From: Thermovirgaceae bacterium
GTDB lineage: Bacteria; Synergistota; Synergistia; Synergistales; Thermovirgaceae
Assembly (NCBI GenBank): GCA_040767805.1
Contig: JAXGNU010000017.1
Location: 1 to 10,314 of the forward strand
Direction of reading: 5' to 3'
DNA length: 10,314 nt
The notes below the pieces were generated by a model. The model made no database searches, was not told where the DNA came from, and saw only the letters and a program-made list of their open reading frames with translations. Below, piece by piece: positions 105 through 10,260 of this stretch. The translations under genes and the position numbers were made by a program. Each line of letters starts with the position of its first letter. The first letter of the stretch is position 1.

Positions 105-1589
105 TTAATCCAATCTCCAGTGGTTACCTAGGCTTTCTTTTCTTTTTAAGGCCGCTTCGGCGACTGCTTTCGCCGTCTCGTAAAGTCCCCGCATTTCAAG
201 AGCCAGCAACCTATCGACAGGGGTCTCGATCCGAGTCTTCCGAGCCCTGAAGTCCGAAAGAAATCCCAGGTAGCTCTCCATTTCACTGGTTCTCCTGATG
301 GGGCCCAGGGCTTTCCAGGTTTCCCGCTGCAGTTCTTTCCGCAGCGCCAGGGGACTTTGTCCCACGCTTTGGGATACTTCGTGAAGAAAACCTGGAACAG
401 GTCCGGATCCTGTTCCATTGTATCCCCCGGCCTCTTCGGCGGCGGCCTCCCCGGTACGGAGACCAAAAACGGCAACGCTGCTGAGGGCGTTACCACCCAC
501 CCGACTGGCTCCGTCGATGCCGCCCGTCACCTCACCACAGGCAAACAAACCATCGACAGCTGTACGCCCTCGGCTGTCAATGACGACTCCGCCGCAGAAG
601 TAGTGCTCCAGCGGGGCTACCCTAAGAGGGCGGGCAAAATCCTTGAAGCGCGAGGCGTCCAGTCCCAGGCAGTATCTAACAGCCGGGTCGTCGAAGCTGT
701 TTTCTTCCAGGTCCTCCAGATGAGCATAAACGCCACCTTCCCTGTCCCTTTCGGCCACCAGCCTAGCGCTCCGGTCACGGGCGAAAAGGCCGCCTTCAGC
801 CCCGTTCCGGTAGCCCCATTCGTAGAGGGTTCTTTTCAGGAACTCCACTCCCCGGCAGTCCGTAACCCTGACAAAGTCAACAAGGGAAAGGTCGACTATC
901 CACCGCGGGAAGCCTGGTTCCGCCCAACCCAGAGGATAGAACTGCACGAACTCCATGTCCCGCAGGACCGCCCCTGCTCCCAACGCCAGGGCGTACCCGT
1001 CGCCGGTTATCCTGCCGGGGTTATCGGTATTGCTGAATATCTGTCCACCTCCTCCGGTGGCCAATATCACGGAGCCCGCCCTCAGGAAGCCCTCTTCCCC
1101 GGTCCGCCAATCCTGGACCCTGGCTCCAACCACCCGTCCACTCTTCACGGTAATCTCCGTGACTGAAGTCCAATCCACGAATTCCACCCCGGACCCCTCT
1201 GCGAGCGCGATGAGTTCCGTGGTGAAACCGGCGCCACCCATGACCATGCTGGGGGCCGTGGACAAGACCGAGGCCCCTCCCCTTTCGAACTCGATGGTGA
1301 CCCCCCATCGGACGAGTTCCCTGAGGGTTTTCTCCGCATCTTCGGAGAGGACCTTAACTAGTTTTTCGTCATTTTGGTGATGACCCGTCTCCAGGGTCTT
1401 CCGGTAATGCTCTTCGGGGGAAAAACCACCACAGGCCAATGTGAATATACCCCCGGCATGGGCGGTGCATGTACCAAGGCCCCGCCTTGCCTTTGAGACG
1501 ACCAGAACATCCGCTCCCGACCTCCTCGCCGCGATGGCAGCGACCAGGCCGGCGCCGCCGGACCCGACGACCAGGACACGTTTTTTCAC
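105..1589 (-). CDS. FAD-dependent oxidoreductase, fumarate reductase/succinate dehydrogenase flavoprotein / L-aspartate oxidase family (stand-alone, substrate unknown), 494 aa
   Basis: N-terminal Rossmann motif VLVVGSGGAGLVAA. Family motifs VILATGG, TGDGYALA..AGA.LRDMEFVQFYP, ARD, HYFCGG, GLFACGE, G.SRVGGNAL and C-terminal R.ESLGNH.R.D. GTG start preceded by a strong SD (GGAAGGAGG). No signal peptide and no adjacent Fe-S subunit gene. Confidence 0.88.
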   Translation of the reverse strand: MKKRVLVVGSGGAGLVAAIAARRSGADVLVVSKARRGLGTCTAHAGGIFTLACGGFSPEEHYRKTLETGHHQNDEKLVKVLSEDAEKTLRELVRWGVTIEFERGGASVLSTAPSMVMGGAGFTTELIALAEGSGVEFVDWTSVTEITVKSGRVVGARVQDWRTGEEGFLRAGSVILATGGGGQIFSNTDNPGRITGDGYALALGAGAVLRDMEFVQFYPLGWAEPGFPRWIVDLSLVDFVRVTDCRGVEFLKRTLYEWGYRNGAEGGLFARDRSARLVAERDREGGVYAHLEDLEENSFDDPAVRYCLGLDASRFKDFARPLRVAPLEHYFCGGVVIDSRGRTAVDGLFACGEVTGGIDGASRVGGNALSSVAVFGLRTGEAAAEEAGGYNGTGSGPVPGFLHEVSQSVGQSPLALRKELQRETWKALGPIRRTSEMESYLGFLSDFRARKTRIETPVDRLLALEMRGLYETAKAVAEAALKRKESLGNHWRLD

Positions 1590-1659
1590 GCTGCTCCTCC
1601 TTCCCGTACACGAGCACTAAGGTATCCGGCTGTCGGTATTTTACCGCTCCATAGCCTTT

Positions 1660-1698
1660 AAAAAAGAAAAGGCGACCGGCTCAATTACTCCGGCCGCC
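1660..1698 (-). terminator. Rho-independent terminator after dctM
   Basis: Minus strand reads GGCGGCCGG-AGTAATTGAG-CCGGTCGCC-TTTTCTTTTTT. This is a 9-bp stem with one G-U pair and a 10-nt loop, followed directly by a U-tract, about 25 nt after the dctM stop. Confidence 0.8.
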
Positions 1699-1721
1699 CC
1701 TTGGACCCAAAGAGTGAGCCC

Positions 1722-3002
1722 CTATCTCAACAACCGGACCAGCCCCATGGAAAGGGAGGGGACGTAAGTAAAAAGCATCAAGCAGGCGACCATGGCCACA
1801 AAGGAGGGGATGATCTCTCTTGAGATGCTCTCTATGCTCTCCCCCGATATGGCGGACGCGACGAAGAGGTTTATGCCGTAGGGCGGGGAGATGAAGCCGA
1901 TCGCCAGGTTGACCGTAATGATCAGCCCGAAGTGTATCGTGTCGATGCCTATCATGCGGACCACGGGCAAGAGGATGGGCGTCAGAATGATGACCGCCGG
2001 GATGTTGTCCACGAAGCATCCCAGGACCAGCAGGAATACGTTAATGATCAACATCAGCAGGAAGGGACTGTGCACGAAGTTTACCAGCAGGGCCGCTATC
2101 TTCGCGGGTATCTGCGCCATCGCCAGGTAGCTCGCGAAGGCCATGGAAAGCCCTATCAGGAAGGACGTAGCGCCGTTTATCAGCCCCGTGGATTTCAGGC
2201 AGTCGTAGATGGCCTTCATATCGAGTTCCCGGTAAACGAACTTGCCTATGATGACGGAATAGACGACCGCTACGACCGCGGCTTCTGTGGGAGTGAAAAC
2301 ACCCCCGTAAATCCCCCCCAGTATTATTACCGGGACGAGCAGGGCCCAGATGGCCTCCTTAAAGGCCTTCGATACTTCTGAGAACTTGGGGCGCTCGGTC
2401 ATGGAAATGTAATTGCGTTTCCTGGCGGTGAAATAACATACCGACATCAAGGCGAAGCCGATTATTATGCCGGGTATTATGCCGGCAATGAACATATCAC
2501 CAATGGAACACTGGGCGACGACGCCGTAGATGACAAAGGGGATGCTGGGGGGAATGATGACGCCTATCGTACCCGCGGCGGCAGTGATGGCCGCGGCGAA
2601 ACCAGCGTCATATTTTCTCTCCTTCATCGAGGGGATCATGAAGGAGCCGATGGCCGACACGGTCGCGGGTCCCGATCCGGAGATCGCGGCGAAGAACATG
2701 CAGGCAAGCACGGTCACCATGGCCAGGCCGCCTACGATGAACCCGACAAGGCTTTCCGCCAACGCTACCAGGCGGCGTGAAATACCGCCGGTGCACATCA
2801 AGGCCCCGGCGAGGATAAAGAACGGTATCGCCAGCAGCGGGAATGAGTCCAGGCCCGTAACGGCCTTTTGAGCGATCATCAGCATGGAGATATCGGAAGT
2901 GAGCATCATCGCGATGCACGTCGATAACCCCAGGGTGATGCCTATGGGGATGCTCACTATTATCGTGACGATCAGGATGGAAAAGAGAATTATCGCTTCC
3001 AT
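1722..3002 (-). CDS. dctM: TRAP transporter large permease (DctM), 426 aa
   Basis: Polytopic hydrophobic protein with DctM motifs SFPLLAIPFFILAG, FFAAISGS, GVIIPPSIPFVIYG, GGIYGGVFTPTEAA and GFISPPYGINLFV. Starts 8 nt after the dctQ stop. Confidence 0.95.
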   Translation of the reverse strand: MEAIILFSILIVTIIVSIPIGITLGLSTCIAMMLTSDISMLMIAQKAVTGLDSFPLLAIPFFILAGALMCTGGISRRLVALAESLVGFIVGGLAMVTVLACMFFAAISGSGPATVSAIGSFMIPSMKERKYDAGFAAAITAAAGTIGVIIPPSIPFVIYGVVAQCSIGDMFIAGIIPGIIIGFALMSVCYFTARKRNYISMTERPKFSEVSKAFKEAIWALLVPVIILGGIYGGVFTPTEAAVVAVVYSVIIGKFVYRELDMKAIYDCLKSTGLINGATSFLIGLSMAFASYLAMAQIPAKIAALLVNFVHSPFLLMLIINVFLLVLGCFVDNIPAVIILTPILLPVVRMIGIDTIHFGLIITVNLAIGFISPPYGINLFVASAISGESIESISREIIPSFVAMVACLMLFTYVPSLSMGLVRLLR

Positions 3003-3010
3003 GGCGCCCT

Positions 3011-3520
3011 CTATTCCGGCATGTCCACGGCGGGGCTGGCCTGCTTGGGCAGCCCGCGTTTATAGAGGTCGTACATTTCGACGATCAACCGAAGGCACAT
3101 CAAGGTGCTCGCCACCGGTACGGAGGCGTAGGGCCACGTCATGGGCATACTCATCGCCGTCGATATCTGGCCCGTTCCCTGGAGGAAAATGAGTAGTTTC
3201 GTCCCTTGCCAAGCAAGGAAAAAGCAGAATGAAAACCAGGCCAGCAAGATAATATATTCAAAAAAAACCCGTGTTTTCCCCTTTATCATGTTTACGAACA
3301 TCTCGACCCTGAAATGGCTCCTTTCCCTCACGGCATAACTGGCACCCATCCAGGAAAGCCAGAGGAAGATGAAACGGGCCAACTCTTCGCTCCAGGAGAG
3401 CGAACTCGAGAACACGTATCTCATCACGACCTGGAAAAAGACCAATATGGTCATTATCGCCATGATCCAGACACAGAAGTATTCCTCGAAATTATGAAGA
3501 AATTTTCTTACCGTCATCAT
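3011..3520 (-). CDS. dctQ: TRAP transporter small permease (DctQ), about 169 aa
   Basis: Four hydrophobic segments, motifs QVVMRY...WSEELAR and H.RV. SD GAAAGGGG lies before the tandem ATG-ATG. The gene sits between dctP and dctM. Confidence 0.93.
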   Translation of the reverse strand: MMTVRKFLHNFEEYFCVWIMAIMTILVFFQVVMRYVFSSSLSWSEELARFIFLWLSWMGASYAVRERSHFRVEMFVNMIKGKTRVFFEYIILLAWFSFCFFLAWQGTKLLIFLQGTGQISTAMSMPMTWPYASVPVASTLMCLRLIVEMYDLYKRGLPKQASPAVDMPE

Positions 3521-3544
3521 ACGACCCCTTTCTGACGGAAAAAG

Positions 3545-3572
3545 CCGCTCCCGCCCGGCCGGGCGGGAGCGG
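3545..3572 (-). terminator. Perfect 28-bp palindrome between dctP and dctQ (intercistronic stem-loop or leaky terminator)
   Basis: CCGCTCCCGCCCGGCCGGGCGGGAGCGG is its own reverse complement (12-bp stem with a GGCC loop as RNA). On the minus strand it is followed by CTTTTT. Confidence 0.7.
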
Positions 3573-3589
3573 GGGTACGGAAATGAGGG

Positions 3590-4582
3590 TTATTTCCGTA
3601 CTTGCTTCAGTATTTCCATAACCTCCTCGCCGAAATCCTTTTCGAACATGGGATAGATCTTCTCGGCGGCATCCACAAAGGGTTGTTTCTCCTCGGGCGT
3701 AAGGGAGTTGGCGGTCATTCCAGCCTTGAGCACTTCATCCTTGAAAGCCGCCTCTTCCTCATCCATGAACTCGCGCTGTTTCAACGTGGCTTCCCGGGCC
3801 GACTTGACCACCAGCTCGTTGAGATCGGCGGGAAGGTTGTCCATGAACTTCTTGTTAGCTATCAGGACCTCGAAGGAAAATACGTGGCCCGTTTCGGAAA
3901 CATACTTCTGGACTTCGTAAAACTTGCCATCGACGATCATGGCATAGGGGTTCTCCTGGGCGTCGACGGTACCCTGCTGCAGGGCGGTGTAGAGTTCCCC
4001 CCAGCTCATGGGCGTGGGGTTGGCGCCGACGGCCTTGAAGAACGCGAGGTGTATCGGGTTTTCCATGGTGCGGATCTTTATCCCCTTCAGATCCGCCGGG
4101 GTCCTGACGGGTCCCCTGTTGTTAGTCACGTGGCGGAATCCGTTCTCCTGGAAACCCAGGATCAGCATGCCCTTAGCCGCCAGGTAGGAATTGAGTTTTT
4201 CCCCAAGAATGCCGTCGGCTGCCTCAAAGGCCGCCTGTTTCGTCGTGAAAAGATAGGGCAATTCCAGTACCTGGACCCTCTTGTCGAATCCCGCGAGCGG
4301 AGCGGAGGCGGGGATAGCCATCTGGATCGTCCCCATCTGCACACCTTCCGAGATCTCGCGGTCACCACCAAGCTGGGCGTTGGGGTAGAGTTCGACCTTG
4401 ATCCTACCCTGGGAGCCTTCCTCGATGGGCTTCACAAAGTACTCCTTCATGGCCCTCATTGTCGGGTGCGAATCGGAGCCGATGTAGGCAACCTTGATCG
4501 TATATTCCGGGGCTGCGAGGGCTGCTCCTGCCATTACCGCGACCACCGCCATCACCGTAAAGACCGCAAGAAGCTTTTTCAC
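3590..4582 (-). CDS. dctP: TRAP transporter solute-binding protein (DctP family), 330 aa precursor
   Basis: Sec signal peptide MKKLLAVFTVMAVVAVMAGAALA-A. Motifs YPNAQLG, ELPYLF, ENGFRH, DLKGIKIRTMEN (carboxylate-binding Arg, R171), PTPMSWGELYTALQQGTVDAQENP and YEVQKY. GTG start with SD AAAGGGGG. Confidence 0.95.
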   Translation of the reverse strand: MKKLLAVFTVMAVVAVMAGAALAAPEYTIKVAYIGSDSHPTMRAMKEYFVKPIEEGSQGRIKVELYPNAQLGGDREISEGVQMGTIQMAIPASAPLAGFDKRVQVLELPYLFTTKQAAFEAADGILGEKLNSYLAAKGMLILGFQENGFRHVTNNRGPVRTPADLKGIKIRTMENPIHLAFFKAVGANPTPMSWGELYTALQQGTVDAQENPYAMIVDGKFYEVQKYVSETGHVFSFEVLIANKKFMDNLPADLNELVVKSAREATLKQREFMDEEEAAFKDEVLKAGMTANSLTPEEKQPFVDAAEKIYPMFEKDFGEEVMEILKQVRK

Positions 4583-4651
4583 CGTTCTTTCCCCCTTTTT
4601 TAGTACCTTTTTTTATAGAAACGCCCTTGGGGCGTCGCTACCAAAGGGCCG

Positions 4652-5077
4652 CTACGCGGCTTTCTTCCTGACCCTGACTTCTCCCTTTTCGGCATCGACC
4701 TCTACATGGTCCCCGTCCTCTATCACTTCATAGGGGTCGGCCTCCATCCGGTCCACCATGGTGCATTCGACCATGACGGCGGCCGAAACGATGACCGGCT
4801 CCGTCTCCACCAGTATAATGGCCGCCGGCAGGTTGTGCTTCACCCAAAGCTGGTAGAAACCGTCCACCTGAACCACCGAGCTGCCCTTGCCGGATTTAAG
4901 CACCAGTATCTTGTTCGCGATGCTCTTGCCGTGGATGGCGTGGTTCCTCTCGATCACTTCACCCGTCTCGGGGTCGGTAAGGTAAAAGCACATGGCGTCC
5001 CTGGAAACGACCGCCTCTCCCTCGGCGCATCCCTTGACTATCTTGCGGCACTTATAGACTTTTACATCCTGAGACAT
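4652..5077 (-). CDS. Aconitase X swivel (small) subunit, DUF126 family, 141 aa
   Basis: Motifs G.AEGEAVVS, DPETG.VI...H...GKSI..KILV, GKGSS (putative catalytic Ser, S66), PAAII, EP....AA and I.DGD.V.VD...G.V. I moved the start from the ORF-track position 5170 to the ATG at 5077 (MSQDVKVYKC), which has SD GGGAGG and overlaps the upstream stop as TGATG. Confidence 0.88.
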   Translation of the reverse strand: MSQDVKVYKCRKIVKGCAEGEAVVSRDAMCFYLTDPETGEVIERNHAIHGKSIANKILVLKSGKGSSVVQVDGFYQLWVKHNLPAAIILVETEPVIVSAAVMVECTMVDRMEADPYEVIEDGDHVEVDAEKGEVRVRKKAA

Positions 5078-6294
5078 CAGTCTATCCTCCCTTTTATCGC
5101 TGCCTCGACGCATTCCGAAAGCCTTCGGATGGCGAAAGGCTGCCCACGGCGTTCCCTGTAGTACGCGCACTTCGGGGAGTCCGTCAGGCCAAGGTGCCCT
5201 TCAAAGGACTTCCAGCAGGGCTCATCGATGCAGGTGTCCCCCACCATTCGAACCCCGAGGAGCTCCAGTTTCTGGCGAAGGTGCGAGCGTTCGGCCAGCT
5301 CGACGGCGCCCGCTTCCGCAAGGATCCAGAAAGCTGTGTTATGGCTGACCTTCCTCCCGGCGAAGAGCCTATCGATCTCCAGGATCTGGTCGTAGGTGTA
5401 GTGGGGGCATCCCAGCATGACCAGATTGATATCGCCCGTAGCGGGGGTAAGCTTGGCTTCCCGGTCTTTCAGGTCCTTATCGGTGATGACGGCCGCGGCG
5501 GACGGCACCTTCCCGCCGCCGAAGGCTGCCTCTATCGTGGGCGCTTCCGGGGTAACGCCGACCATGTGATACATGGCGACTGCGCCGCTCGTAGCGGCCT
5601 CGGCCCCGAAGTAGAGGTAGTCTTCCGGCCCGGGGTTGACCTTGTGCTTGAAGCGAAGGACCGGGTTATGATAGCCCGCCAGTTCCCCCACGACGTGCCC
5701 AAGGATCCCCCAATCGTAGCAGTCCTTTAAATCGGCCTCGACCTCGACCAGGAGATGGCCGTGCCTGTTCTCATCGATGTGAAAACCGTAATAGGGTGTT
5801 TTGCCTATCACCGCCGCGGCCAGGGCGCTTATGGACGACTCCCGGTTGGAGCGGGCGCCGAGAGCTCCGTTGACATAGGGCGTAGCGCTGGATTCTGAAT
5901 AGGCGATGTGTTCGCCGAAAAAGGGTACGCCCGTGCTCAGTCCGGGGGCGCAGTGGTAGGTGAGTTTTGCTCCTATTTTGCGGTAGGCCTCACCGGTACG
6001 GTTAGCCAGGTCTAGTTCTTCCTTGGTGACGTCGAAGAATTTCGTGAGGTAGCAGGTGTCCCAGTAGGGGTTCGTCGTCGGCGTAATGGCGCAGGTCGCG
6101 CCGCCGTTAACCAGGAGTTCGCACCAGTAGGTGTCTCCTTCCTGCCCGCTCAGCGCTACGTGAGCGCGCTTTACGGGTATCAACTTTTCCGCGTCGAAGG
6201 TGAGCCCGAGGGCGTAGAGCATTTCCATCGCCTTCTGCTTTCCCGGCCCTTCGGACCCGTCCAGTATCCGCTTCTCTTCGTCTGTGAGAAACAT
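5077..6294 (-). CDS. Aconitase X catalytic (large) subunit, DUF521 family, 405 aa
   Basis: N-terminus M.LT.EE..IL.G..G...Q.AM, then A.KLIPV..AH, TTNP, C115 (HCAP), GEHIAYSESSA..YVN..LGARSNRE, SGAVAMYHMVGVTPEA, LGCPH (C296), DTC (C355) and TDSPK. The three Cys are the expected Fe-S ligands. SD AGAAAGG. Confidence 0.9.
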   Translation of the reverse strand: MFLTDEEKRILDGSEGPGKQKAMEMLYALGLTFDAEKLIPVKRAHVALSGQEGDTYWCELLVNGGATCAITPTTNPYWDTCYLTKFFDVTKEELDLANRTGEAYRKIGAKLTYHCAPGLSTGVPFFGEHIAYSESSATPYVNGALGARSNRESSISALAAAVIGKTPYYGFHIDENRHGHLLVEVEADLKDCYDWGILGHVVGELAGYHNPVLRFKHKVNPGPEDYLYFGAEAATSGAVAMYHMVGVTPEAPTIEAAFGGGKVPSAAAVITDKDLKDREAKLTPATGDINLVMLGCPHYTYDQILEIDRLFAGRKVSHNTAFWILAEAGAVELAERSHLRQKLELLGVRMVGDTCIDEPCWKSFEGHLGLTDSPKCAYYRERRGQPFAIRRLSECVEAAIKGRID

Positions 6295-6310
6295 GGTCAG
6301 CCGCCTTTCT

Positions 6311-7603
6311 TTATTGAGATTTGCCTACGACGGGCAGTGAGATCCCACCCATCGGGATAATGCCGATCGTCGCACCGGGGATGAGCTCCAGGGCCTTGTC
6401 CAGGGCCTCCTGGACCGTGGGGAAGGGCGTGTACCCCATGGCGGCGATGTCCTCCTTCGACAGGCCTTCCGTGACGGAAAAGATCCTCGCCTTGTCCCTG
6501 GCGCGGCAGTTGCATATGGCGAGTACCGCCGATACCGTATCGGCTTCCACGTCCTCCGGCGAGGTCGCTCGCAGCCTCCGTAGCGCTTCGTCCAGGGAGA
6601 GGGAGAGCCATTCCCTGAAGAGGGGGTGGTTATGGGCTAGGCCCTCTCCACAGGGGGCCGCAAAAATGATGATGCCCCCCTTTTTCACGGCGAAATAGGC
6701 GCAGCTGACGCCCTTGGTAGCTTGCCAGTAGTCCATGTCGGAAGGCCACGAACTCACTACAACTATATCCGCGGGTTCGGGCACGGTGATCCTGAAGGAC
6801 TTTTCGGCGAGTTTTATTCCCTCCCTATGGGCCTTTATGAAATCACCGGAGAAAAGGCCGGCGATCTCATCCCGGTAGTTCTTGACTATATTGACAATGA
6901 ACGCCAGCCCGGCGATCCTCGCCACTTCCTCTATTCCCTCGCGGCAGGGGTTGCCGTCGGCCACCCCCAGGGGTATATCGGGACAAAAACCGGCGGCAGC
7001 GTGGGTGGCGGAAGTGGTGACAAAGTCGCAGACCCCGGGCTGCAGGATCTTGGCTCCCCCGGCGTAACCGGCGTCACAATGGGGCACGATGTTCCCTATG
7101 CCGACGAGGAGATCCGAGGCCAGGGCGTAGCGGTTGACGTGGGCGGGTATCTCGTAATCCCCGGCCATGACCGTTCCGATATCGACCATATCCTCCCTGG
7201 CCGTCGCGTCGTGCTGCACGACCTTGAAGCGCCTGACCATCTCGGGGCCAAGTTTTTCAAGGATCTCCCTTTCGGTCATGAGCCTGTGGGTCCCTGGGGC
7301 GGTGAGGAAACTCATCGCGCCGTCGGGTACTCCGTTTTCGTTGAGGTACCCCGTGATCACGGGCATTATGATGTCCAGGGGCGTGCTACGGGTGCTGTCC
7401 TCCACGAGGAAGACGATGTTCTTCTTCCCGCGGGCGAGTTCTTTGAGGGGCGGGGTGCCAAGGGGCGATTCAAGGGAGGCGACGAGGGCCTTTTCGAAGT
7501 GTTCCAGCGGGGGGATGTCGGACATCTCACCCTCGAAGATCACGGACCTCTCGGGGGCCTCGAAGCTGACTCTCCTGTTTCCGTAGGGGATTTCATATCT
7601 CAT
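6311..7603 (-). CDS. larA: LarA-family nickel-pincer-nucleotide-dependent 2-hydroxy-acid racemase/epimerase (substrate probably not lactate), 430 aa
   Basis: Motifs I.YG at the N-terminus, L..PLG.P.L, DSTR (D69, R72), APGTHR (H106), PH..AGYAGGAK..QPG (H175, K185), H201, NP.R, D..WQATK (Q294, K297) and VK.GG.II..A.C.EG. I moved the start from 7684 to the ATG at 7603 (MRYEIPYG), which matches the family N-terminus. The symbol denotes the family only. Confidence 0.9.
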   Translation of the reverse strand: MRYEIPYGNRRVSFEAPERSVIFEGEMSDIPPLEHFEKALVASLESPLGTPPLKELARGKKNIVFLVEDSTRSTPLDIIMPVITGYLNENGVPDGAMSFLTAPGTHRLMTEREILEKLGPEMVRRFKVVQHDATAREDMVDIGTVMAGDYEIPAHVNRYALASDLLVGIGNIVPHCDAGYAGGAKILQPGVCDFVTTSATHAAAGFCPDIPLGVADGNPCREGIEEVARIAGLAFIVNIVKNYRDEIAGLFSGDFIKAHREGIKLAEKSFRITVPEPADIVVVSSWPSDMDYWQATKGVSCAYFAVKKGGIIIFAAPCGEGLAHNHPLFREWLSLSLDEALRRLRATSPEDVEADTVSAVLAICNCRARDKARIFSVTEGLSKEDIAAMGYTPFPTVQEALDKALELIPGATIGIIPMGGISLPVVGKSQ

Positions 7604-7650
7604 CAGGTAACACCATTCCCTAATAGGATCAGTACGTTCAAGACGTGTGG

Positions 7651-7660
7651 CCTGTATACT
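7651..7660. promoter_or_regulatory. Putative GntR operator in the larA leader (CCTGTATACT)
   Basis: 7/8 match to the palindrome TGTATACA. The 9-mer CCTGTATAC is identical to the copy at 7861-7869. Confidence 0.5.
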
Positions 7661-7739
7661 GCTTCCGTTGAAACTCCTGACCATGCAACCTTGAACCGGT
7701 GGCCGTCAATATCGCATGAAAGTCGCTTTCCTGTTTCGG

Positions 7740-7767
7740 ATAATAACACCTGGGATTATTATGTCAA
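7740..7767 (-). promoter_or_regulatory. Sigma70-type promoter for the larA-acnX-dctPQM operon
   Basis: Minus strand: TTGACA (7767-7762), a 16-nt spacer, then TATTAT (7745-7740) with an extended -10 TG (TGtTATTAT). Predicted start site near 7733. Confidence 0.7.
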
Positions 7768-7830
7768 TGAAGGCAAGAGATATCAAGATGATCCAAGGGA
7801 GCGGTTTTAATTTAAATTGAATGGGCTCTA

Positions 7831-7859
7831 TGGACAAATTTGCCTTTTTAATGTATATT
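7831..7859 (+). promoter_or_regulatory. Sigma70-type promoter for gntR-ilvD
   Basis: TGGACA (7831-7836), a 17-nt spacer, then TATATT (7854-7859). An AT-rich tract lies upstream at about 7805-7820. Confidence 0.6.
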
Positions 7860-7870
7860 CCCTGTATACA
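7852..7870. promoter_or_regulatory. Putative tandem GntR operator overlapping the -10 and start site of gntR
   Basis: Perfect palindrome TGTATACA (7863-7870) plus a degenerate copy TGTATATT (7852-7859) 11 bp upstream. This matches the TGTATACA core known for GntR/FCD regulators such as Bacillus subtilis GntR. Confidence 0.6.
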
Positions 7871-7898
7871 TCTGGTTCATCCTTTTGGAGGCGGGGCC

Positions 7899-8558
7899 AT
7901 GAAGGGCAACAATAGGGCCAGTTGGGAGAAGGCATACGGGTGGATCCGTGACGCGATCGAATCGGGACAGATAGTGATGGGATCACCCCTGCCGGAAAAC
8001 CAGCTCGCGAAGGAGATAGGCGTGAGCAGGACCCCTATCCGTGAGGCTTTACGCTGCCTTGAGCAGGACGGTTACGTCACGATAATCCCCCAGAAAGGGG
8101 CCTTCGTTTCGCGGATTTCCCTGGAGGACCTGAAGGAAATTTACGATATCAGGAAGCTCCTGGAACCCTTCGCGGCTTTGTCGGCCGTGAACAGGGTCCC
8201 CGAGAAAAAGATCGATGAAATGGAAAAGGACTGGAAGGCCTTGAAAAAAGCCGCTTCCTCGGGGGAAGTAGACCTTTCCAAGGTCTCCGAGATGGATTAC
8301 CGGACGCACATGACGATAACCGGGTATGGGACCAATAAACGCATCGGAACCATCATCGCGACCTACCACGCCCAGATACAGCTTTTCCAGAGACTCTCGG
8401 CCCAGTCGCTCGCCAACATCTTTGAAACCATCGATCAACACCTGGAGATCCTCGAAAAACTGCGCGAAAGGGACGCCGAGGGCCTGTCAAACCTGCTCTA
8501 CGAACATATCGGTAAAAGCGAGAGCAACATTATGAAGGATTACTTTCTCCGGCAATAA
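7899..8558 (+). CDS. GntR-family transcriptional regulator with FCD effector domain, 219 aa
   Basis: Winged HTH motif G..LPE.QLA..IGVSRTPIREAL..LEQDG.V...P.KGAFV. FCD features EIY.IR.LLE, D...H, QH..I and EH. I moved the start from 7821 to the ATG at 7899, which follows SD GGAGG (7887-7891). Confidence 0.93.
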   Translation: MKGNNRASWEKAYGWIRDAIESGQIVMGSPLPENQLAKEIGVSRTPIREALRCLEQDGYVTIIPQKGAFVSRISLEDLKEIYDIRKLLEPFAALSAVNRVPEKKIDEMEKDWKALKKAASSGEVDLSKVSEMDYRTHMTITGYGTNKRIGTIIATYHAQIQLFQRLSAQSLANIFETIDQHLEILEKLRERDAEGLSNLLYEHIGKSESNIMKDYFLRQ

Positions 8559-8580
8559 AACAGCATGGGGGGAAGGCCCT

Positions 8581-10260
8581 ATGAAGTACAGGAGTTCCGA
8601 GATCCTTTCAGAACTTAAGTTCACCGAGAACAGGGCGTTGTATAAATCCATGGGTTTTTCGAACCGCGATCTTGATGGGCCCCTCATCGGCATAGCCAAC
8701 TCCTGGAACGAACTAGTGCCGGGACACTACAACCTCAGGAACGTGGCCGACTTCGTGAAAAAGGGGATACTCAGGGCGGGGGGCGCCTCCGTAGAATTCG
8801 GAGTCATCGGAGCCTGCGACGCCCAGGCCTGCGGACACATAGGCATGAAGTACATCCTGCCGACGAGGGACCTCATCGCCTTCGACATCGAGTCGATGGC
8901 CGAAGCCCACAGGCTTGACGGTATCGTCCTGTTGGGTTCCTGCGACAAGATCGTGCCGGGGATGCTCATGGCGGCGGCCAGGCTCGACCTGCCGGCGATA
9001 CTGCTCGTGGGCGGCCCCATGGCCGGCGGCATCGAATTCGACGGGCGAAAGAGCGACTCCACGTCTGTATCCGAGGCCGTGGGCATGCTAAGCGCCGGCC
9101 TGATAAGCAAAGAGGAGTTTTCCCGATTGGAAGACTATGCCGCCCCCTCCTGCGGGTCATGCTCCTACTACGGCACGGCGAATTCCATGGGATGCGCGGC
9201 CGAAGCCATGGGCCTGTCGCTCACGGGGTCGTCCCTGATCCCCGCGACCTCCTCGGCGAGGATGAGGGCCGCGGAGGCAACGGGCAGAACCATCGTGGAC
9301 CTCGTCAACGGGGACGTCACGGCCCGAAGGATCATCACGAGGGCTTCCCTCGAAAACACCGCCAGGGTAATGGTCGCCACGGGGGGTTCCACCAATACCT
9401 TTATCCATCTTTCCGCGATAGCCAACGAGATAGGGGTGGATGCGGAAACCATGATGGAAATCTACGACAGGGCGAGCGAAGCGGTCCCCTCCGTGGCGAG
9501 GGTCAACCCCTCCTCCGAGTACGACATGGAAGACTTCTACCGCGCCGGGGGCATCCCCCAGGTAATGAAGGAACTGCTTGACGATTTAGACCTCTCCTGC
9601 CTGACCGTGAGCGGCGAGACCCTTGGGGAGAACCTGGAGAAGTGGACTCACCCCTTCGAGGTCGACAGGAGGGTCATCCGCTCAAAGGAAGATCCCTTCA
9701 GCAGTTCGGGAGGGCTCGCGGTCCTCAGGGGCAACCTGGCGCCGGGCACCGGGATAACTAAACCCATTGCCATAGACGCCTCGATGCATTATTTCTCCGG
9801 GCCCGCGAGGGTCTTCGAGTGCGAAGAAGACGCCAACGAAGCCATCCTCTCGGGGAAGATAGCCGAGGGTGACGTGATAGTCATCCGCAACGAGGGGCCT
9901 AAGGGCGGTCCGGGAATGAGGGAAATGTACTTCGCCATGAAGTTGCTTTACGGGCGGGGCCTGGCGAAAAAGACCGCCCTGATAACGGACGGCCGCTTTT
10001 CGGGAACGAACAACGGATGCTTCGTCGGGCACATCTCGCCGGAAGCCGCCGAGGATGGGCCGATAGCCGCCGTGAATGACGGGGACAGGATAACCATAGA
10101 TATCAAGAACAAGAGGCTTGACGTGGACTTGACGCCCGAGGAGATCGCCTACCGCTTGAAGCAGCGGGTAAGGCCGCCGAAGAAGGAATATAAGGGCATC
10201 CTCGGCCTTTACGCGAAGCTGGCGACATCGGCCGCCGAAGGCGGCATGATCAGGATATAA
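8581..10260 (+). CDS. ilvD: IlvD/Edd-family Fe-S dehydratase (dihydroxy-acid dehydratase-like), 559 aa
   Basis: Motifs P.IGIANSW.E.VPGH, CD....GH.GM.Y.L..RD.IA, CDKIVPG (C121, K123), GSC....TANSM (C194), GGSTN, L.GNLAP, EGPKGGPGMREM and ITDGRFSG...G..VGHISPEA (S474). Starts 22 nt after the gntR stop. The symbol denotes the family; the physiological substrate is uncertain. Confidence 0.92.
   Translation: MKYRSSEILSELKFTENRALYKSMGFSNRDLDGPLIGIANSWNELVPGHYNLRNVADFVKKGILRAGGASVEFGVIGACDAQACGHIGMKYILPTRDLIAFDIESMAEAHRLDGIVLLGSCDKIVPGMLMAAARLDLPAILLVGGPMAGGIEFDGRKSDSTSVSEAVGMLSAGLISKEEFSRLEDYAAPSCGSCSYYGTANSMGCAAEAMGLSLTGSSLIPATSSARMRAAEATGRTIVDLVNGDVTARRIITRASLENTARVMVATGGSTNTFIHLSAIANEIGVDAETMMEIYDRASEAVPSVARVNPSSEYDMEDFYRAGGIPQVMKELLDDLDLSCLTVSGETLGENLEKWTHPFEVDRRVIRSKEDPFSSSGGLAVLRGNLAPGTGITKPIAIDASMHYFSGPARVFECEEDANEAILSGKIAEGDVIVIRNEGPKGGPGMREMYFAMKLLYGRGLAKKTALITDGRFSGTNNGCFVGHISPEAAEDGPIAAVNDGDRITIDIKNKRLDVDLTPEEIAYRLKQRVRPPKKEYKGILGLYAKLATSAAEGGMIRI

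Follow-up and report, generated by a model that had tools for sequence, protein, structure and literature searches.

The 10,314-nucleotide contig JAXGNU010000017.1 of a Thermovirgaceae bacterium (Synergistota; assembly GCA_040767805.1) brings together genes for a LarA-type nickel-pincer epimerase, a two-subunit aconitase X (AcnX), a tripartite ATP-independent periplasmic (TRAP) transporter, an IlvD-type dehydratase, a GntR regulator and a flavoprotein, and it raises the question of whether they serve one pathway and, if so, for which substrate. The window analysed here is this entire contig (C17 of genome G000, 10.3 kb), and both of its flanks end at contig ends. The metagenome-assembled genome (MAG) to which it belongs comprises 1.65 Mb in 29 contigs, with an estimated completeness of 80.6%; the organism names attached to close homologues of its proteins point to Synergistaceae. 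By combining an open reading frame (ORF) listing with Pfam and NCBIfam profile scans, we confirmed nine genes of named families, in the layout that an initial annotation of the same DNA had described. That annotation had proposed that an imported hydroxy-carboxylate is epimerised and then dehydrated by two unrelated Fe-S dehydratases. Our own reading, held with slightly less than even confidence, is that the locus may form a regulon under GntR/FCD control for the breakdown of a small 2-hydroxy monocarboxylate taken up from outside; the likeliest substrate would be a short-chain 2,3-dihydroxy acid or its stereoisomer set.

The joint conservation of these genes was assessed in two samples. Fourteen LarA orthologues were aligned (alignment A1), 39 loci were fetched from one-per-species genomes, and the proteins of the window were mapped onto them; in addition, an order-wide sample of 151 genomes was searched, with LarA orthologues called at E <= 1e-80. 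Kin genomes are not independent, so the genome counts are descriptive. ORFs in the high-GC loci of Thermoleophilia were picked with a filter on third-codon-position GC (GC3). AcnX lay beside the LarA orthologue in 32 of the 39 loci, and three of the seven loci without it stop at a contig edge next to LarA. Of the other genes, TRAP components occurred in 24 loci, GntR homologues of 25-91% identity in 23, IlvD in 10 and the flavoprotein in one. The order-wide sample held a LarA orthologue in 33 genomes and AcnX in 43, and in 25 of the 33 no more than 5 kb separated LarA from AcnX. MAGs of Thermoleophilia and a single deltaproteobacterial MAG also have the LarA-AcnX pair. The conserved core thus consists of gntR, larA, acnX (large and small subunits) and dctPQM, which agrees with the co-occurrence of larA, acnX and dctP that the initial annotation had named as a check on its proposal, and includes dctQM and gntR.

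Two types of AcnX were distinguished in these loci: type A, the kind found in the window (59-98% identity), and type B, which is 42-48% identical to type A. Type A mostly follows larA directly and occasionally stands elsewhere in the locus, type B precedes larA, and six loci carry both types on either side of one larA. The LarA position itself is more variable. In genome G107, larA is reduced to two end fragments (L101:8886-9166; residues 2-74 and 387-425), while ilvD-gntR and acnX-dctPQM are intact and a D-2-hydroxyacid dehydrogenase (2-Hacid_dh) gene follows dctM. Such a dehydrogenase occupies the place of LarA in three LarA-less loci (L104, L101 and L103), and a family of about 410 amino acids with faint LarA similarity does so in three others (L102, L106 and L107). 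Pfam scans of flanking ORFs in relatives further placed aminotransferases, D-isomer-specific 2-hydroxyacid dehydrogenases and an Etf-linked FAD oxidase next to the module; aminotransferases and D-2-hydroxyacid dehydrogenases both use 2-oxo acids, and these two kinds of neighbour count in favour of the proposed regulon. The exchange of LarA for a dehydrogenase, like the link of AcnX to histidine utilisation described below, goes beyond what the initial annotation had claimed.

A related gene set was observed elsewhere in the same genome. A transposase-flanked island (L010:2683-13747; G000:C3:178682-189746), with a GC3 of 0.28-0.49 against about 0.78 elsewhere, carries genes for a GntR/FCD regulator, an amidohydrolase, a 2-Hacid_dh protein, an aminotransferase, a 426-aa protein with a faint Lar_N match, DctQM, and a DctP 45% identical to that of the window. 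The 426-aa family (40-65% identity among members) also adjoins type-A AcnX in the LarA-less loci L102, L106 and L107.

The LarA homologue contains both superfamily domains, Lar_N (PF09861) and LarA_C (PF21113), above their cut-offs. In LarA1, the catalytic and cofactor residues are reported as His108, His174, Arg75, Lys184 and His200 (PMC11770544). The equivalents in the 429-aa protein of the window are Arg71, His105, His174, Lys184 and His200, which align with Mar2; four of these residues are invariant in alignment A1 and Lys184 is nearly so. Genes for larB, larC and larE are clustered at C2:171469-174374, all above cut-offs. The best structural match was the malate racemase Mar2 of subfamily LarAH6 (PDB 6d6z, E 5.4e-66), with which, as with the LarA superfamily at large, the protein shares its fold, domains, catalytic His pair, cofactor Lys and His, and Arg, along with larBCE in the genome. 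It nevertheless scored below all six matching NCBIfam LarA models (LarAH6, 288.5 against a cut-off of 500; LarAH5, 223.7 against 462; LarA lactate racemase, 267.5 against 460), and differs from these known enzymes in standing under every curated subfamily cut-off, in its specificity signature and in its AcnX partner. Four positions are described as predicting specificity in LarA homologues (PMC11770544); these are Cys, Asp, Val and Ser here, and no published signature for lactate, malate, 2-hydroxyglutarate or gluconate agrees with them. The Val356-Ser357 pair lies opposite His-Lys of Mar2 (W358/T359 in LarA1; His/Gln-Lys in malate racemases), within a low-confidence stretch of the alignment. 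Asp follows the catalytic His in 31 of 36 aligned LarAs.

The two AcnX domains, catalytic (PF04412) and swivel (PF01989), lie on separate polypeptides, so that the window enzyme shares with known AcnX both Pfam families and the two-subunit, type II architecture. The best solved relative of its large subunit was the archaeal mevalonate-5-phosphate dehydratase (7cnr, 5.8e-56), ahead of hydroxyproline dehydratase, and Cys115, Cys296 and Cys355 align with Cys of 7cnr. No mevalonate genes are part of the context in the window. The score against the hydroxyproline dehydratase model NF051439 was 203 where the cut-off is 700, and a Pfam scan found no ornithine cyclodeaminase or proline genes in the window. 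Both known AcnX reactions remove a beta-hydroxyl together with the alpha-hydrogen (PMC8184944), and bacterial subclasses IIc-IIf, which do not have the landmark residues of either known activity, are described in the same source as uncharacterised (Watanabe 2021).

Two further observations were made on AcnX. In the type-B large subunit, codon 353 is an in-frame TGA in 5 of the 13 genes read through (L017, L024, L027, L039 and L046) and encodes Cys in the other eight. This TGA aligns exactly with the Cys of a DT-C-ID motif (Cys355 in the window, a putative Fe-S ligand), conservation continues past it, and one TGA was also flagged in six further genomes; the TGA-bearing genes probably encode a selenocysteine form of type-B AcnX. 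The genome of the window also encodes an AcnX of a third kind, which shares about 30% identity with that of the window (L009:9227-14183, contig C2). It adjoins an ornithine-cyclodeaminase-family gene, a serine-dehydratase-alpha-like gene and DctM, and resembles a hydroxyproline-type context.

The transporter is complete, with DctP, DctQ and DctM all present and the carboxylate-binding Arg, Arg and Asn of DctP retained. The nearest solved relatives of DctP are 4p47, 4p9k/4pak, 4pdh, 8t9t (isethionate), 4pdd and 4nq8, which are reported with pantoate or erythronate or, in the case of the isethionate binder, bind that acid, and not with dicarboxylates. Asp74, Arg150, Arg171, Trp194 and Asn211 align with positions 76, 152, 173, 196 and 213 of 4P47, which are reported as its carboxylate and hydroxyl contacts (PMC11668362). 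By this kinship, DctP resembles hydroxy-monocarboxylate binders of the pantoate/erythronate/isethionate subgroup.

IlvD/Edd enzymes dehydrate 2,3-dihydroxy acids, and the copy in the window shares both domains with dihydroxy-acid dehydratase (DHAD) and sugar-acid dehydratases. It passed the DHAD cut-offs only marginally (TIGR00110, 635.5 against 618.15; NF002068, 654.3 against 644), whereas canonical IlvDs of relatives scored 750-807 bits. In a maximum-likelihood tree of 26 sequences, it grouped with the other gntR-linked copies and those of L041 and L021 in a nine-row clade (100/100), separate from the canonical clade (L084-L088). Unlike canonical DHAD, it stands 22 bp behind gntR (corrected starts) and is linked to LarA, AcnX and TRAP genes; in L041 and L021, ilvD follows dctM in the larA operon rather than gntR, and the clade accompanies the module in three different gene orders. 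This clade was present in 28 of the 151 genomes, namely in 19 of the 33 LarA genomes against 9 of the 118 others, and in 12 of the 28 it was located within 5 kb of LarA or AcnX. A search for ilvC found none in G000, whose completeness is 80.6%, or in G004, its 95-96% relative; among relatives, 17 of 26 genomes have an ilvC above the cut-off. By its phylogeny and linkage, the IlvD of the window appears to be a module-specific paralogue and not the biosynthetic enzyme whose presence, in the initial annotation, would have spoken against a common pathway. Its separate clade, its co-occurrence with LarA and its linkage therefore make it part of the system in part of the lineage but not universally, and the proposal that IlvD belongs to the cluster holds in this restricted form, with ilvD in only 10 of the 39 LarA loci.

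The same genome has a second IlvD-family gene (L008:8746-15416, contig C5), which at 578 bits is below the cut-off and falls in a third clade of the family, one found widely among relatives. It is located in another TRAP cluster, with Asp/Glu-racemase-family, ornithine-cyclodeaminase-family and GntR/FCD genes.

The genes of the window are arranged around a divergent control region (Table 1). On the minus strand, larA is followed by acnX large, acnX small, dctP, dctQ, dctM and the flavoprotein gene, with gaps of 16, -1, 69, 69, 8 and 132 bp after correction of starts. The LarA start was corrected to 7600 (MRYEIPYG), because the length then agrees with that of homologues of about 429 aa. That of AcnX small was corrected to 5077, with GGGAGG upstream and an overlap with the stop of the large subunit, and GntR probably starts at 7899, preceded by GGAGG. 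The best promoter-like site in the window (7767..7740, minus strand; 11/12 matches) is directed at larA. The hexamer GTATAC occurs only twice in the 10.3 kb, at 7654-7659 and 7864-7869, both within the divergent region, where it forms the core of palindromes at 7654-7659 and 7863-7870 (TGTATACA); both copies fall in blocks kept in 7 of 7 aligned orthologous intergenic regions. GntR may bind these palindromes, and the promoter-like site and conserved operator-like sites support the shared control region that the initial annotation had placed here. A hairpin between dctP and dctQ is the strongest terminator-like site in the window and is a possible attenuating terminator. Contigs from four RNA libraries of four studies cover 30, 29, 26 and 23 of 30 bins, and single contigs span acnX-larA and gntR-ilvD, which neither proves transcription nor ranks the genes. 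The depth of these contigs (dctP highest and the flavoprotein lowest in 4 of 4 runs) was not used as evidence because it cannot rank genes and DNA may be present, and the uncovered bins in runs X18-X20 were likewise set aside.

Table 1. Features of the 10,314-nucleotide window, by position and strand.
Feature	Position	Strand	Support
Flavoprotein, stand-alone FAD, FrdA/SdhA/NadB family	105..1589	-	Pfam FAD_binding_2 + Succ_DH_flav_C
dctM, TRAP large permease	1722..3002	-	PF06808, 391 bits; TIGR00786, 437 bits against cut-off 268
dctQ, TRAP small permease	3011..3520	-	PF04290, 128 bits
GC-rich hairpin + T-run between dctP and dctQ	3545..3572	-	12-pair stem, 11 G-C pairs
dctP, TRAP solute-binding protein, resembling the hydroxy-monocarboxylate-binding subgroup	3590..4582	-	PF03480
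acnX small (swivel) subunit	4652..5077	-	PF01989
acnX large subunit, two-subunit (type II) form, here type A	5077..6294	-	PF04412, 388 bits
larA homologue, predicted nickel-pincer 2-hydroxyacid racemase/epimerase, uncurated subfamily	6311..7600	-	PF09861, 155.5 bits; PF21113, 43.9 bits
Divergent control region, 298 bp	7601..7898		Promoter-like site + two GTATAC-core palindromes
gntR, GntR/FCD-family regulator	7899..8558	+	PF00392 + PF07729
ilvD, IlvD/Edd-family dehydratase, module-linked paralogue	8581..10260	+	Both Pfam domains

The flavoprotein stands apart from the conserved core. Among the best 25 of its 57 NCBIfam matches, it scored below every cut-off, the top match being TfrA (247 against 718). 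Its hinge reads QFYPLG, with Tyr opposite His232 of E. coli FrdA, whereas the equivalents of His355 and Arg390 are kept; the Tyr is invariant in 11 orthologues. By score, by hinge residue and by the Fe-S partner, the protein is thus not assigned as a fumarate reductase, a succinate dehydrogenase flavoprotein or an L-aspartate oxidase, and no FrdB-like or Fe-S partner gene was found in the flanks of nine orthologues outside the genus of the window. A Tyr in place of the fumarate-binding His is reported to distinguish urocanate reductase from fumarate reductases (PMC7921117). The flavoprotein shares the FAD_binding_2 core and the carboxylate-holding His and Arg with urocanate reductase (UrdA), soluble fumarate reductases and L-aspartate oxidase, and has the Tyr hinge of UrdA; it differs from UrdA in having an FrdA/NadB-type C-terminal domain and no FMN-binding domain in Pfam. 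UrdA did not appear among the 35 PDB matches found at E <= 1e-20. In UrdA, Asp388 serves as the acidic or amide contact to the imidazole; the residues of the clamp domain were not alignable. Orthologues were present in 40 of the 151 genomes, and LarA genomes did not have them more often (10 of 33) than the remaining genomes (30 of 118). Adjacency to the module was seen in two cases only, the window and L011 in G004 (the 95-96% relative). A fixed partner for the flavoprotein was considered and rejected, as the nine contexts examined outside the genus have no neighbour in common. The initial annotation had counted this gene as part of the system, which these distributions do not favour; we regard it as a lineage-specific add-on whose membership is uncertain.

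What reaction sequence could the conserved core carry out? LarA homologues are reported to invert C2 of 2-hydroxy acids that include glycerate, 2,3-dihydroxyisovalerate and 2,3-dihydroxybutyrates (PMC11770544). For a set of enzymes made up of a C2 epimerase, an IlvD-family protein and AcnX, a 2,3-dihydroxy monocarboxylate would be the substrate with the most economical chemistry. The TRAP system would import the acid, and the LarA homologue would invert its C2 with the nickel-pincer cofactor, for whose synthesis larBCE are present elsewhere in the genome. The two-subunit AcnX, with three conserved Cys like those of the archaeal [4Fe-4S] enzyme, would then strip the C3 hydroxyl and the C2 hydrogen. 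The dedicated IlvD, predicted to be co-transcribed with the regulator and facing the same operators, would perform the same chemistry on a stereoisomer or close analogue that AcnX refuses. Both dehydratases would yield a 2-oxo acid that could enter amino-acid-type fermentation by transamination, reduction or oxidative decarboxylation, and the flavoprotein may be a non-fumarate member of the FrdA/NadB family recruited in this genus only. Gene content, conservation, the paralogue status of IlvD, the conserved operator-like sites and the cofactor genes form the direct basis of this scheme, to which every reaction, the substrate class and the regulation are added as inference.

Several results weigh against a dihydroxy-acid regulon of this kind. 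IlvD is missing from 29 of the 39 LarA loci, and in seven LarA genomes with the module-linked clade the distance from ilvD to both LarA and AcnX exceeds 5 kb or the gene stands on a different contig. Because it passes the curated cut-off for dihydroxy-acid dehydratase, this IlvD may also serve in salvage or biosynthesis. No LarA orthologue at the E <= 1e-80 threshold accompanies AcnX in 16 of the 43 AcnX genomes, and the exchange of LarA for a D-2-hydroxyacid dehydrogenase or the faintly LarA-like family fits a route from a 2-hydroxy acid to an enoate at least as well. The second half of the alignment by which the LarA specificity positions were assigned is of low confidence. The flavoprotein is without a place in the model, and a generic dihydroxy-acid scheme leaves the recurrent association of AcnX with histidine utilisation (Hut) genes unexplained.

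This association was observed in several settings. Type-B AcnX and LarA are found among urocanase, imidazolonepropionase-like amidohydrolase, formiminotransferase/cyclodeaminase (FTCD) or arginase-family genes in eight loci (L027, L036, L037, L038, L041, L042, L047 and L049), and inside Hut genes in three phyla; in L047, the order is GntR, AcnX-B, LarA, DctP, two arginases, amidohydrolase, urocanase and DctQM. Type A is involved as well: L103 carries, on one strand, histidine ammonia-lyase (HAL), GntR, AcnX-B, urocanase, 2-Hacid_dh, amidohydrolase, FTCD_C, FTCD, AcnX-A and DctPQM, and its type-A genes, including the TRAP genes, are 58-77% identical to those of the window. In the order-wide sample, AcnX was located within 10 kb of urocanase in 9 of the 43 AcnX genomes, from seven genera, against a rough expectation of 1-2% for a 2-Mb genome.

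Further urocanase contexts were noted in the course of this comparison. In L111 (G004:C4:91000-110900), the housekeeping urocanase has on one side genes for GntR, two PrpD-family proteins, FTHFS, DctQM and an AcnX pair, and on the other those for DctP and another AcnX; the urocanase and one flank are syntenic with G000 C2:76858-83816, where the AcnX and TRAP genes are absent. A shorter urocanase paralogue, with ORFs of about 573-602 aa and scores of 225-232 bits where the common form reaches about 270, occurs near AcnX or LarA in several genomes, for example at G005:C7:41735, G045:C2:815837 and G132:C28:43440, and suggests a second, Hut-like pathway set. The Thermoleophilia loci L042 and L049 contain MttB-family methyltransferase genes and a second aromatic-amino-acid-lyase-like gene near the genes for 2-Hacid_dh, AcnX-B and LarA and those of the Hut set; frameshifts seem to affect several genes of these long-read MAGs. 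The idea that AcnX-B and LarA replace histidine ammonia-lyase was rejected, as the lyase is still encoded in all five of the genomes with type-B loci that were tested.

These contexts raise the alternative that the module handles a histidine-derived hydroxy acid, which we regard as unlikely. Imidazole-lactate or a related acid would be imported and racemised by LarA, or in relatives made from imidazole-pyruvate by the D-2-hydroxyacid dehydrogenase, and AcnX would convert it to urocanate or imidazole-pyruvate; the product would pass to the Hut pathway or, through a urocanate-reductase-like flavoprotein, to imidazole propionate. Besides the loci just described, among them the urocanase of G004, a member of the genus of the window, with two further AcnX genes and a TRAP system around it, the neighbourhood of aminotransferase, 2-Hacid_dh, LarA and AcnX has the logic of a route from amino acid through oxo acid and hydroxy acid to enoate. 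The Asp that follows the catalytic His in most LarAs and the hinge Tyr of the flavoprotein are also in keeping with it. Yet no Hut gene was found near the module in Pfam scans of ORFs flanking the window or the other type-A-only loci, and the urocanase of the same genome has unrelated neighbours with no Hut genes beside it. We know of no precedent in the aconitase or IlvD families for removal of an alpha-hydroxyl with a non-activated beta-hydrogen, and IlvD would be without a role unless a dihydroxy imidazole acid exists. The retention of histidine ammonia-lyase in the five type-B genomes counts against this route too, as does the flavoprotein, which is unlinked to the module beyond one genus and whose Tyr indicates only a non-fumarate substrate. 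No paper on an imidazole-lactate or urocanate dehydratase appeared by title or abstract among the matches listed. In its most specific form, to which we give a slightly lower probability still, AcnX with LarA or a D-2-hydroxyacid dehydrogenase would be a CoA-independent Fe-S dehydratase that forms urocanate or imidazole-pyruvate from imidazole-lactate or a close analogue, with the Tyr-hinge flavoprotein leading on to imidazole propionate in this genus. If this were true, imidazole-lactate dehydration would be a hitherto unrecognised entry to the Hut pathway and a third, chemically unprecedented AcnX activity.

A C4-dicarboxylate route appears improbable, less so on chemical grounds than on those of the individual proteins. 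Dehydration of the malate or tartrate type is well precedented for Fe-S hydro-lyases, and LarA could racemise D/L-malate or tartrate isomers, AcnX could act as a fumarase or tartrate dehydratase and the flavoprotein could reduce fumarate. The closest LarA matches are indeed malate racemases, fumarate reductase and aspartate oxidase are family members of the flavoprotein, L106 has an aspartate aminotransferase and 2-Hacid_dh ahead of AcnX-A, and a DcuC carrier lies near L046. However, LarA scores far below the malate-racemase cut-off, with Val-Ser in place of His/Gln-Lys and an Asp in the pocket; the fumarate-binding His is missing in all 11 flavoprotein orthologues, in a protein that is not conserved with the module; and the nearest solved relatives of DctP are reported with acids other than dicarboxylates. 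The LarA signature, the flavoprotein Tyr and the DctP kinship thus disfavour malate, maleate and tartrate, which the initial annotation had listed as candidates. We consider it very unlikely that the genes are neighbours without a common pathway, in which case LarA would be an ordinary lactate racemase, IlvD a biosynthetic enzyme and the transport genes unrelated. The marginal pass of IlvD at the DHAD cut-offs and the public annotation of LarA orthologues as lactate racemase would agree with such a view, but LarA falls well short of the lactate-racemase cut-off, gene order is kept across families and phyla, the operator-like sites are shared and conserved, and the IlvD belongs to a clade that lies apart from the canonical copies and co-occurs with LarA, in a genome where ilvC was not found.

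Compared with described systems, the proposed 2-hydroxy-monocarboxylate regulon follows a familiar plan. All component families are known, and the combination of importer, epimerase and dehydratase is itself a known design (Desguin 2020 Table S1). In that table, LarAH group 5 (Mar1, with an altronate-dehydratase-family gene and Tct) and group 22 (IlvD/Edd with TRAP) share with the window a tripartite importer, a nickel-pincer nucleotide epimerase and a dehydratase; the window differs in its LarA subfamily, in AcnX as the main dehydratase and in its GntR/FCD regulator, and it is without the sugar-kinase and short-chain-dehydrogenase context of group 22. A LarA-AcnX pairing is not listed there for groups 1-21 and the start of group 22, and neither AcnX COG numbers nor the word 'aconitase' was found in two supplement files of that study. 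No paper linking AcnX with LarA was found in the literature searched, which included the names DUF521/DUF126 and lactate racemase/DUF2088; no characterised pathway with this combination turned up, as the initial annotation had supposed. The literature searched contains no description of the LarA-AcnX pairing, of the module IlvD clade or of these AcnX subclasses, and the preprint PMC13320830 has nothing of relevance.

AcnX has only two assigned activities, with none for most bacterial two-subunit forms, and the LarA superfamily is largely unassigned. A conserved LarA-AcnX pair with its own transporter, regulator and IlvD paralogue therefore gives a concrete starting point for experiments on a new activity of AcnX and a new specificity of LarA. 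It is carried by Synergistota that ferment amino acids, among them, by the source names of the records, the cultured genera Cloacibacillus, Synergistes and Fretibacterium. Microbial histidine metabolism is of current interest because of imidazole propionate, and the repeated occurrence of AcnX paralogues among histidine-utilisation genes may point to a branch of it that has so far gone unrecognised.

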